Positions 57,753 to 61,855 of a stretch of DNA of 64,000 bases are shown here, one piece after another. Below the pieces are notes generated by a model that saw nothing but the letters and a program-made list of their open reading frames with translations, did no database searches and was not told where the DNA came from. This DNA is from Stylophora pistillata. Taxonomy: Eukaryota. Positions within the stretch are counted from its first letter, which is position 1; the number at the start of each line of letters is the position of its first letter. The stretch covers positions 1 to 64,000 of the forward strand of contig NW_019217984.1 of the NCBI RefSeq assembly GCF_002571385.2, read 5' to 3'. Position numbers and translations under genes: made by a program.

Positions 57753-60700
57753 ATGGAGTGCTTTGTTGTGTTTCTGATGACTCTGGCGGCGGTGACGTCA
57801 TTTCCTCTGAAAAATGAAGAGGACTCACCTTTGAAAATAAAGGTAACGCAATGCAAGAGCTTCGTGTATCATGTTCGGAGCGTTAACAATACTTTTTTCC
57901 GGCACTTTTAAAGTAATCTTCAATTGAGTCTTGTCAGTTAATAAGATTGTTAATAGGTGTTCATTTGTTACGCTCTCTTATGGATAAAAACAACTAGCCC
58001 TTTCATTTTGGTTTTGTTTTTAATCAGAGCGTTGGGTTTTTTTTAATTAAGTACAACTCAAACTCACGCACTAAATCGAAAAGAGCTCTATCACGCTAAG
58101 GACCATTTGGTCCTCCCTCAAAAACCTTCGTTACAAGCCTTGCTCTGTTTTGATTGCTCTTAAATCATATTAATAAATTATTATCCCTTTTTTAAGATTT
58201 TGCGCCCACCACTACTATATGGAAGATCGATGAAAGGTAAGTGCATTTTTTAAATCTTTTTTTACTGCTTTCCGCAGTGTCACAGTACAGATTTTTCATG
58301 TTTAACCAAGGATAAACTCCCTAACTCTCGTAAAGTTTAACCACATGTACAGTTTTTCATGAATTTTTTATGGATTTAGTGAGTCTATTAATGAATCTGA
58401 AATAGATAACTTTGCAGAAGCACATGTAGGTTGGATACATATACAAGCCCCGAAATTTATACATAACTTGCGAAGGCCAGAATAACAAACTATTACCCAT
58501 CTTTTCTCTTTAATCACGTCAATGATTTTTTTTTCTGTTAGATTTTTCAGGGCAATGCTATGTAATTCAAAGAAAGTCCTCAATTTTCTTAGAAAATTTA
58601 AAAACATCTCAGCTATTGATTTCAGATCATGATAATTACTTTTGTAGAGCCACATCTGAACGACCCCGCTCCATTTGGCAACTGGGGTGTCAACGTTGGT
58701 TGGCGAAATGGTGGGGTCAAAGTCGGTGGAGGGCCTAACAACAACGGTGGACATGGGGTGGGTGTCAACGTTGGTTGGCTGAATAGGGGTGTCGATGTCG
58801 GTGCAGGGCATAACAACAATGGTGGACATGGAGTGGGTGTCAACGTTGGTTTGCCGAATGGAGGCTTTAATTTTGGATTCGGAAAAAGAAATACTGGTAA
58901 GTCTATCCAGTGATCTATAATTATATTGGTATCTCTCTGTCGTTGTGTTGTTATTGTTGTTCAACATACACAAGTACATAAGTTTTTGCATCCCCACAAT
59001 GCAGACTTTTCCCTGCGACTCTCTTACATGTATGATGATATAGCCTCTGAATTTTTGTTTTTGGCACGAACGATCCGGCCACCAGTCCCTCGTCCCACAC
59101 TACCCTCCCCCCCTACTTGCTTATCAATCCATCCATCCATCCATTCACTCATGTTCTCAACCATCCATCGATCCACCCATCCACTTGTCTTGATTTCAGA
59201 TGAGTTTTTTGTAGTTTTTGGACAGAAATCTGCTTCTACAGAATAACTTTAATTTACAACTCTTTCTTCTCCGGCCTGGCTCAGAAGATTGTGAATTTAC
59301 CAGTTCTTTTTTGACTGATACATTTTCAGAACTGATTTGAGCTTTGGAAAGATCGACGTGATTTCTGTTGCCACTGTTACAAGAAAGGGGCGTGATCATT
59401 GCAATGGTTTCTCGAGTTTGATTAGTAGCTTTCATCATATGGTTGCGTTGTTCTCGCATTTCATTAGTTACAATACATTTGTCATTTTCTCTTGTATTAC
59501 ATCAATGATCCTTTGCTGCAGTAAGATTTACCTGTGCAGTGCTATTTAATTCAAATCAGCTTTTCGATCTTCCAAGAAAATTTCAAAAAGTTACAACTGT
59601 TCATTTCAGATGATATTAATTCCTTTGCAGAACCAGTTCTGAATGATCCCGCTGAACAAAGCAAAAGGGGTTTTTATACTGTTGGCGGTTATGGAAATCA
59701 TGGCCCCATTAGCGGAACTATTGGTGGAACTATTGGTTCTCAAGGTGGAGGATATCCTAATTACGGGAAGAGGAAGATTGGTAGGTCTATTAATTGATCT
59801 ATCCTTTTTTGTGCAATCTCTTTGTTCTTATAGCTGTCGCTGATGTTGTTTTCTGTACACAACCAGGAATCAATACAATTCAGACTTTTCCCTGCTCTTA
59901 TACGTCATTTATGAAGTACTAAGATTTGCCTGTGCAATGCTATTTGATTCAAATCAGCTTTTCGATCTTCCAAGAAAATTTCAAAAAGTTACAACTGTTC
60001 ATTTCAGATGATATTAATTCCTTTGCAGAACCAGTTCTGAATGATCCCGCTGAACAAAGCAAAAGGGGTTTTTATACTGTTGGCGGTTATGGAAATCATG
60101 GCCCCATTAGCGGAACTATTGGTGGAACTATTGGTTCTCAAGGTGGAGGATATCCTAATTACGGGAAGAGGAAGATTGGTAGGTCTATTAATTGATCTAT
60201 CCTTTTTTGTGCAATCTCTTTGTTCTTATAGCTGTCGCTGATGTTGTTTTCTGTACACAACCAGGAATCAATACAATTCAGACTTTTCCCTGCTCTTATA
60301 CGTCATTTATGAAGTACTAAGATTTGCCTGTGCAATGCTATTTGATTCAAATCAGCTTTTCGATCTTCCAAGAAAATTTCAAAAAGTTACAACTGTTCAT
60401 TTCAGATGATATTAATTCCTTTGCAGAACCAGTTCTGAATGATCCCGCTGAACAAAGCAAAAGGGGTTTTTATACTGTTGGCGGTTATGGAAATCATGGC
60501 CCCATTAGCGGAACTATTGGTGGAACTATTGGTTCTCAAGGTGGAGGATATCCTAATTACGGGAAGAGGAAGATTGGTAGGTCTATTAATTGATCTATCC
60601 TTTTTTGTGCAATCTCTTTGTTCTTATAGCTGTCGCTGATGTTGTTTTCTGTACACAACCAGGAATCAATACAATTCAGACTTTTCCCTGCTCTTATACG

Positions 60701-61855
60701 TCATTTATGAAGTACTAAGATTTGCCTGTGCAATGCTATTTGATTCAAATCAGCTTTTCGATCTTCCAAGAAAATTTCAAAAAGTTACAACTGTTCATTT
60801 CAGATGATATTAATTCCTTTGCAGAACCAGTTCTGAATGATCCCGCTGAACAAAGCAAAAGGGGTTTTTATACTGTTGGCGGTTATGGAAATCATGGCCC
60901 CATTAGCGGAACTATTGGTGGAACTATTGGTTCTCAAGGTGGAGGATATCCTAATTACGGGAAGAGGAAGATTGGTAGGTCTATTAATTGATCTATCCTT
61001 TTTTGTGCAATCTCTTTGTTCTTATAGCTGTCGCTGATGTTGTTTTCTGTACACAACCAGGAATCAATACAATTCAGACTTTTCCCTGCTCTTATACGTC
61101 ATTTATGAAGTACTAAGATTTGCCTGTGCAATGCTATTTGATTCAAATCAGCTTTTCGATCTTCCAAGAAAATTTCAACAAGTGACAACTATTGATTTCG
61201 GATGATGTTAATTCCTTCGCAGAACCAGCTCTGAACGATCCCGCTGAACAAAGCAAAAGGGGTTTTTATACTGTTGGCGGTTATGGAAATCATGGCCAAT
61301 GGGGTAATACTCATGGAACCGTTGGTTCCCATGGTGGAGGATATTATTACGGGAAAAGGAAGATTTGTAGGTCTACTAATTGATCTATCCTTTTTGATGC
61401 TATCTCTTTGTTGGTAGAGTTGTCGTTGATGTTGTTTTCTGTACACAACCAGGACTCAATACGATTCAGACTCTTCTCTGCTCCTATACGTCATGTATGA
61501 TATAGCCTCTAGATTTTTGTATGACATGAACAATCCAGCCACCTACTCCATCCCCCTCTCCCACTTGCTCTTCCATCCATCCATACATCTACTGATTCAT
61601 CCATAGATGCACCCACCCACTAGTCTTGTAATATTCTGAGAATATCTTACACCTCTTTATGTAATCAGAGGAACTGATAATTTGTAAAGGGCATTGGCTG
61701 CTTATTTTTATCTTTTTATATTATTATTTGTTTTTTGGTATTTGAGATCTTTAAAGAAAACTACAATTTTCTTTTCCATTTCGATTTCTTACTTTGGTGA
61801 ATTCTCTTATATTTCAGACCCAAATGTGAACGACTTTGGAGAGAGACCCCAATGA
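57753..61855 (+). CDS. Secreted prepro-polyprotein of Gly-rich amidated peptides, about 386 aa
   Basis: Exons 57753-57842 (signal MECFVVFLMTLAAVTS-FP), 58197-58236, 58648-58896, 59631-59780, 60029-60178, 60427-60576, 60825-60974, 61223-61366 and 61818-61855. Phases are consistent, KR and GKR processing sites are present, and AATAAA lies at 61998. Confidence 0.8.
59523..61500 (+). repeat. 398-bp tandem repeat (4 near-identical units plus 1 diverged), each with one exon
   Basis: ORFs and introns recur with an exact 398-bp period. Confidence 0.95.

Follow-up and report, generated by a model that had tools for sequence, protein, structure and literature searches.

A putative exon-cassette precursor of glycine-rich peptides in the coral Stylophora pistillata, with a possible role in host defence

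Organization of the gene

The window considered here is a stretch of 64,000 nucleotides from the coral Stylophora pistillata (positions 1 to 64,000 of contig NW_019217984.1, assembly GCF_002571385.2; the contig is called C201 below). On its plus strand, at 57753-61855, lies a gene, hereafter the window gene, coding for a putative precursor in which glycine-rich peptides are carried by successive exons. A model that saw the letters alone had proposed such an exon-cassette polyprotein releasing amidated peptides, and the coordinates and peptide sequences of this original prediction are correct. A non-coding first exon, a non-amidated tail and a series of tandem paralogs had been missed.

The window gene has nine coding exons, its eight coding introns are all GT-AG, and the reading frame of 386 codons is open with a single stop. 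The non-coding first exon (57083-57254, start approximate) is joined from 57254 to 57750 in an RNA contig, across a GT..AG intron. Exon 1 (57750-57842, coding from the ATG at 57753, phase 0 end) carries a predicted signal peptide of about 16 residues and the start of a pro-piece; it is 52% identical to the signal exons of the paralogs. The signal peptide was called from the hydrophobic N-terminus, judged by eye, and from a helix in the AlphaFold model of a homolog (P0003). Thus, of the signal peptide and acidic pro-piece claimed at the outset, the former holds as judged from the sequence. The latter does not, because the pro-piece of exon 1 has three acidic and three basic residues; it is net acidic in the paralogs only. 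Exon 2 (58197-58236, phase 0-1) continues the pro-piece with a Gly-Arg site and contains the octapeptide once proposed as ILRPPLLY-amide. This product is doubtful, as it is flanked by single basic residues only and is not kept in the paralogs. At the homologous position, the protein P0012 has GKRR and P0004 has no amidation signal.

The next six exons are the cassettes. Each is in phase 1-1, begins with PxLNDPA and ends with GKR followed by two residues, as had been described, except that the intron following the signal exon is in phase 0. The DNA pattern formed by the splice acceptor and the spacer was found six times in the 398 Mb genome, always in the window gene, and the reversed control gave no match. 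Cassette exon 3 (58648-58896, 249 nt) contains a spacer, a Gly-rich peptide of about 69 residues with three internal hairpin repeats (58674-58880), and GKR. A KR site separates spacer and peptide in exons 4-8 and is absent in exon 3, so that the N-terminus of the exon 3 peptide is uncertain. The peptides of exons 4-8, 30-32 residues long, start with Gly-Phe after KR. In exon 4 (59631-59780, 150 nt), the spacer and KR are followed by a 32-residue peptide (59669-59764) and GKR; exons 5 (60029-60178), 6 (60427-60576) and 7 (60825-60974), also of 150 nt, have the same sequence. These four exons belong to four near-identical exon-plus-intron units of 398 nt (59522-61113) with 0-3 differences between copies, and sequence comparison reveals a diverged fifth unit at 61114-61500. 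The latter contains exon 8 (61223-61366, 144 nt), with spacer, KR, a 30-residue peptide richer in His and Tyr (61261-61350) and GKR. The last exon (61818-62019, coding to 61855) encodes a short, spacer-like, non-amidated tail, the stop codon at 61853-61855 and the 3' UTR, with AATAAA at 61998. Word-index homolog searches returned no match with exon 3. Exon 4 retrieved nothing but itself, within an open reading frame that includes an intron; therefore, no annotated full-length protein of the window gene was found.

Transcripts and copy number

Six of 24 listed sequencing runs were compared with the window gene. In the coral poly(A) run X4, an 834-nt contig joins the non-coding exon, exons 1, 2 and 3 and one exon-4-type copy and reaches into exon 8. 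In run X6, an 803-nt contig extends from exon 3 to 62019, just beyond the AATAAA signal, and joins exon 8 to 61818. The raw reads of run X24 cross the joints between exons 1 and 2 (2 reads), 3 and 4 (13 reads) and 8 and 9 (7 reads), and 20 further reads lead from the end of an exon-4-type cassette back to a cassette start. The joint between exons 1 and 2 is seen in the X4 contig as well as in the two X24 reads; that between exons 2 and 3 is seen in the X4 contig only, and the span from start to stop is covered by no single record. In most stranded libraries, RNA from the plus strand gives first mates on the minus strand, and this is the orientation seen for the majority here. The cassette exons are thus joined to the signal exon in RNA reads and contigs, as the original prediction required, and the window gene is spliced and expressed in some samples.

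With 9.7 million reads, the four-copy exon is covered about 30-35x, a modest depth. In run X21, none of 12.9 million records falls on any exon, while 126 reads fall on an upstream repeat; therefore, since X24 does contain exon reads, expression differs between samples. Run X1 yields only unspliced pieces of the window gene. Run X18 looks like DNA, and the assembly may derive from it.

Concerning the number of cassettes, two positions distinguish exons 4-7 from exon 8, and at these the exon-4 letter is carried by 41 of 52 raw X24 reads and by 43 of 54, respectively. The resulting ratio of 3.7-3.9 (95% interval about 1.9-8.4) fits four copies. The X4 and X6 contigs hold a single exon-4-type copy each, which may reflect assembly collapse or true variation. 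A back-joint with the 398-nt period also occurs in one X1 contig and one X24 read.

The paralog cluster and its relatives in other corals

On C201, a tandem series of at least five paralogs begins with the window gene and is followed by a remnant. Signal exons resembling that of the window gene (57753) are found at 68447, 87481, 98900 and 109217, and a broken sixth copy lies near 115450. The paralogs resemble the window gene in DNA in the first intron, the signal exon, the pro exon, the cassette start and the 3' end. In paralog 2, the cassette exon is interrupted by an early stop. Paralog 4, with two cassette exons, corresponds to P0004, a protein of Stylophora pistillata that is annotated as uncharacterised. 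Paralogs 3 and 5 enter assembly gaps within a 15-residue tandem repeat; in paralog 3, the unit is repeated at least 11 times ahead of the gap. Elsewhere in the genome no convincing family member was found, the best match outside the cluster having an E value of 0.39. At 51612-51829, the promoter and the start of the 5' UTR exon recur in inverted orientation (about 78% similar); as this copy has no signal-exon match, it was not counted as a gene.

Two features of the control region may be mentioned here. In the first intron (57520-57535), a GGAA(A/G)TTAT motif, which we take to be kB/GATA-like, is kept in four of the five paralogs and nearly so in the fifth, without statistical support. kB-like sites were considered as evidence of immune control and set aside, as one strict site stands 150 nt before the ATG where about 0.1 is expected per 1.6 kb, and it is not kept in the paralogs.

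A profile search of 1.84 billion proteins gave eight matches, seven of which are family members; the eighth, the Cys-rich repeat protein P0013, was judged to match the spacer by chance and was left out. Homologs include P0003 from Pocillopora verrucosa, P0012 from P. meandrina and unnamed relatives. All named homologs are pocilloporid, which does not amount to absence from other groups. The ortholog of exon 3, P0010, has an open frame, keeps LNDPA and GKR and stands for a cluster of 100 database members. Cleavage and amidation sites, on which the initial proposal had relied, are kept in the homologs: every cassette is dibasic and most have the amidation glycine. In P0003, four short xWGIx-GKR units (residues about 84-115) precede an 83-residue beta-repeat domain of net charge +13. 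As read from the sequence, these units would yield tiny amidated, neuropeptide-like pentapeptides from the same cassette. In a database copy of the exon-4 peptide (P0008, ENA), Trp replaces the amidation Gly, through an allele or an error.

Considering these data, one may ask whether the window gene is a decaying or neutral repeat-expanded gene, its fourfold exon being partly an artefact of assembly. In favour of this idea, three of the four units are letter-identical, introns included, the X4 and X6 contigs show just one copy, two members of the cluster (paralog 2 and the remnant) are broken, and the P0008 copy lacks the amidation glycine. However, the raw-read counts fit four copies, the 398-nt back-joint recurs in a further sample, and the exon 3 ortholog remains open with its spacer and GKR in an entry representing 100 database members. 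Decay or artefact is therefore very improbable.

The cassette unit and its peptides

The complete form of the unit is seen in the paralogs, where a spacer, an acidic hairpin-like pro-segment and KR precede a peptide of 25-34 residues, after which come a basic site and then a short tail. The paralog peptide is predicted from its sequence to form two strands about an Asn-Gly or Gly-Gly turn. According to alignments, exon 3 of the window gene has the paralog-type pro-segment repeated about three times, with KR lost, and exons 4-8 have dropped the pro-segment and kept a derived peptide. On a profile made from the peptides of paralogs and homologs only, the exon-4 peptide scored above all 992 scored shuffles.

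The mature peptides contain 14-38% Gly, and Cys is absent in 10 of 10. Hydrophobic alternation (i,i+2) exceeds that of shuffled sequences in seven of the ten (p 0.0002-0.022; p=0.0002 for exon 3), and there is none in P0014. In this test, the peptide boundary for exons 4 and 8 was one residue off. The last residue is aromatic in eight of ten peptides. The C-terminal beta-signal of outer-membrane proteins consists of a Gly five before the end, an aromatic or aliphatic residue two before it and an aromatic last residue. This pattern, picked after the sequences were seen, fits three of the ten peptide types (exon 3, exon 8 and the second P0004 cassette; frequency in shuffles 0.001-0.034 each), and the four-copy peptide of exons 4-7 does not fit it. 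A Pfam match to YadA_anchor is weak and below the cut-off (E=0.043).

Such composition brings to mind a structural role, in which the released peptides would be Gly/Tyr/Asn-rich strands that assemble themselves into fibrils or gels, be it in mucus, in the larval adhesive or in the organic matrix. The uncharged, Gly/Tyr-rich peptides of exons 4-8, the regular beta-repeat of exon 3 and of paralog 3 (the 15-residue unit) and the tolerance of the peptide regions to change would agree with it. However, structural proteins seldom need the dibasic sites present in every cassette or the amidation glycine present in most, and the modest read depth at the four-copy exon, together with the lack of reads in X21, is also unfavourable. 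We regard this role as unlikely, while retaining it as the foremost of the alternatives.

Evolution of the peptides and of their processing sites

Exons 4 and 8 were compared codon by codon. Nonsynonymous changes amount to 10.5 over 63 sites in the peptide, against 1 over 38 in the spacer and cleavage sites (Fisher p 0.048), that is, rates of 0.167 and 0.026. Synonymous sites differ by 0.16-0.18 and the flanking introns by 0.06-0.11. Between the window and the reads or contigs, each of the 13 differences evaluated in mature regions alters the amino acid (p about 0.024), and two of three in exon 1 are silent. Of these 13, exon 3 of X4 accounts for six and the N-terminal codons of exon 8, in X18 and X24, for five, and two are single; 20 further rows lie outside this set, and the samples may be cryptic species. 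The five exon 8 differences affect consecutive codons (61262-61273) at the N-terminus of the peptide, all nonsynonymously. The 5' part of exon 8 exists in three nested forms, stepwise nearer to exon 4, an arrangement that suggests gene conversion from exons 4-7. As spacers and sites change slowly and peptides rapidly, it follows that the processing sites are constrained, and that the payload either changes freely or is selected to change.

Tandem duplication, fast mature regions and amidated multi-peptide precursors are also typical of venoms, and membrane-binding hairpins could affect animal cells. Hence, a precursor used by cnidocytes or gland cells as venom or deterrent against animal prey, predators or competitors was considered. 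It is at odds with the lack of Cys in all ten mature peptides, with the lack of any toxin family match in Pfam or in the sequences of the PDB, and with the nature of the sole family lead, which, coming from an ESM Atlas search with P0004, points to antibacterial peptides. A venom function is accordingly quite improbable.

Comparison with known precursors

An arrangement like that of the window gene, with one mRNA coding for a single signal peptide and, behind it, repeated units of spacer, dibasic site and peptide, is known from insects. In the ant Camponotus floridanus, the hymenoptaecin precursor, as described in the accessible part of PMC3415428, also has a signal and pro-piece followed by tandem Gly-rich units; each unit has, on its flanks, a dibasic site and an acidic spacer containing Pro, and the first unit is the longest. 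The ant units, however, have 97 residues and lie in a single exon, with no amidation reported in that part of the article (PMC3415428). The coral units are of 25-83 residues, one per phase 1-1 exon and mostly with an amidation glycine, a likeness that falls short of alignment-level homology. The bee apidaecin precursor is closer in exon layout, with one exon per peptide, a repeated spacer and dibasic site, and a dose amplified from one gene (PMC3415428, same part). In contrast, apidaecins are proline-rich whereas the coral peptides are glycine-rich with a beta-strand pattern. By analogy, the window gene would work like a hymenoptaecin- or apidaecin-type precursor, without being classed as an attacin.

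The Attacin C-terminal domain family (PF03769: attacin, diptericin, prolixicin) is secreted, as is predicted for the coral peptides, and like them it is Cys-free and Gly-rich. It differs in that the coral sequences gave no Pfam match and that most coral units are a single hairpin. For a fly attacin, PMC10690985 describes an antiparallel sheet, as predicted, that comes closest in structure to barrels of the outer membrane, BtuB and FyuA among them. The low-confidence model of P0003 matches BtuB and FyuA too (Z 10.0 and 8.7). Its best alignments are with the walls of BtuB, TamA, BamA, LptD and OmpU (Z 9-10). These porin matches were not used as proof, as most residues have pLDDT below 50 and the wall of a barrel will accommodate any antiparallel meander.

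It has also to be weighed whether the gene encodes a neuropeptide precursor, or that of a paracrine hormone, which is specific to this lineage and acts on coral receptors. The cnidarian neuropeptide preprohormones, as far as the available part of PMC7523074 describes them, likewise have a signal peptide, multiple copies, G-K-R amidation sites and X-Pro-rich spacers, so that the layout of the window gene is that of a neuropeptide gene. In addition, LNDP precedes a peptide in Acropora RFamide precursors (supplement of PMC7523074), and the P. verrucosa homolog has its four xWGIx-GKR units. Compared with the neuropeptides in that source, however, the coral peptides are far longer (25-83 residues), lack the pyroglutamate or N-terminal proline protection that most of them have, are exon-coded and fast-changing, and fall outside the scleractinian families listed there. 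The peptides of exons 4-8, in particular, do not have the form of a short peptide protected at its N-terminus by pyroglutamate or proline. None of the coral peptides ends with the C-terminal signatures of the listed cnidarian families (GPRG, GRF, GLW, RP, ITRF and HIR amides). The initial statement that no known cnidarian neuropeptide family is matched stands within the 11 searchable supplement files of PMC7523074, a survey of hexacoral neuropeptides, in which YPNY, GVNVG, RPPLLY and GFNFGF are absent and GWGI occurs once, in an unrelated precursor. Moreover, mature regions changing faster than spacers are the reverse of what is expected of a receptor ligand, and the birth and loss of tandem genes also argue against such a function. 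A neuropeptide or hormone role has, all things considered, a small chance of being correct.

A possible role in host defence

It may well be, with arguments about evenly balanced, that the six Gly-rich, Cys-free peptides of the window gene are host-defence peptides acting on Gram-negative bacteria, at their outer membrane, as oligomeric beta-hairpins. This proposal is based on the multipeptide layout, on the Atlas neighbours of P0004, on the name given to P0012 and on the published action of attacins at the outer membrane. The hydrophobic alternation in seven of the ten peptides, the profile score of the exon-4 peptide and the rapid change of mature regions beside well-kept processing sites also speak in its favour. 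In the Atlas, P0004 has as neighbours a hymenoptaecin-like cluster (0.85) and two Attacin_C clusters (0.83 and 0.82), taken at the level of a lead; the ten best family-bearing matches all belong to one clan. In UniRef, P0012 is called 'Attacin C-terminal domain-containing protein'. As for attacins themselves, the accessible text of PMC10690985 presents a predicted trimeric barrel for an insect attacin and outer-membrane damage as shown, and that of PMC4874388 states that attacins block the synthesis of outer-membrane proteins. Thus, the initial suggestion of a new defence, venom or signalling family is narrowed, in that the paralog cluster and the resemblance to attacin and hymenoptaecin shift the odds to defence, a shift to which the uncharged four-copy peptide runs counter.

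In the proposed model, the signal peptide would be removed, after which, by established prohormone chemistry, a convertase would cleave after KR, a carboxypeptidase would trim the ends and glycine-dependent amidation would follow. Six products would result, namely a long peptide, the 32-mer in four identical copies and a 30-mer. For the amidated forms, the calculated monoisotopic masses are 3103.44 (exons 4-7), 3148.36 (exon 8, allele of the window) and about 6775 (exon 3, given its uncertain N-terminus). Judging from resemblance, the ancestral unit may have been an amphipathic beta-hairpin with two strands, similar in type to attacin/hymenoptaecin, and the hairpins would bind to, or insert into, Gram-negative bacteria's outer membrane as an oligomeric sheet. 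Duplication of phase 1-1 exons would provide, from one transcript, a higher dose (four copies) and a wider range of peptides.

Several observations weigh against this reading. The peptides of exons 4-7 and of exon 8 have a net charge of 0, and the four-copy peptide, being uncharged, is no obvious membrane-active peptide; in the homologs, the net charge of the peptides ranges from -3 to +13. The alternation signal is lacking in the peptides of exons 4-7 (p 0.57) and exon 8 (p 0.81). On the paralog and homolog peptide profile, exon 3 and exon 8 are weak, 43 of 1000 and 149 of 987 shuffles scoring as high. The Atlas scores of P0004 are below 0.9, and one third of shuffled proteins reach 0.8; with exon 3 of the window gene, the Atlas search gave no usable match. 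The UniRef name of P0012 is probably automatic and hence no independent support. In Pfam, neither Attacin or Gloverin nor any other curated family was matched by the eight window and paralog exons or the ten homologs, and an Attacin_C search of the genome gave no match at the locus of the window gene. The AlphaFold models, meanders of six and seven strands, are of low confidence (pLDDT 43.5 and 41.2, the latter for P0003). Finally, the mature-region pN (0.167) equals pS (0.16), so that relaxed constraint fits as well as positive selection. Apart from these arguments, Foldseek with the exon 3 model returned nothing at E<=0.001, and the search of PDB sequences only papain-family matches with E of 0.13 or worse.

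A bolder version, rather unlikely in our opinion, would be that corals possess true attacin/hymenoptaecin-type peptides, cut down to single beta-hairpins and multiplied by exons, whose aromatic C-terminal strands mimic outer-membrane proteins and jam or hijack BAM, or self-assemble into barrels. Attacin-C is placed at the base of Neoptera in the accessible part of PMC4874388, so that the coral likeness would be either deep homology or convergence. Were this version true, a supposedly insect-specific family would date back to the cnidarian-bilaterian ancestor, or the convergence would be striking. The coral peptides would then offer minimal models of 25-30 residues for the unresolved mechanism of attacins and for outer-membrane damage.

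Few coral antimicrobial peptides have been described, and these mostly contain cysteine, e.g. damicornin. Literature searches by motif, identifier and topic, which did not extend to papers under subscription or to some 1.7 million PMC articles, returned no description of the peptides or of the gene. The architecture is of a kind already known; the peptides, their occurrence in a coral and the system of exon-cassette hairpins seem not to have been described. Such a copy-variable, fast-changing cluster, coding for secreted Gly-rich peptides and present in two reef genera of wide distribution, would provide a direct and testable handle on the bacterial community and disease resistance of corals; the peptides are short and open to chemical synthesis. 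Should the peptides turn out to be structural or neuronal, they would still form an unannotated family.

Genomic surroundings

Both flanks of the window gene (52200-55700 and 63000-63400) are occupied by a diverged, non-coding segmental repeat family, within which a 153-nt sequence is repeated three times in tandem (53671-54129). A near-perfect inverted repeat of 100 nt with a 14-nt centre, resembling a miniature inverted-repeat transposable element, lies at 55763-55976. Just upstream of the cluster are two largely single-exon TPR-CHAT genes (30137-33568 and 40275-43600). Further upstream, a gene with fibronectin type III repeats (3158-15188) has a counterpart downstream, at about 126400-139600 of C201, similar by appearance, so that the two flank the region.

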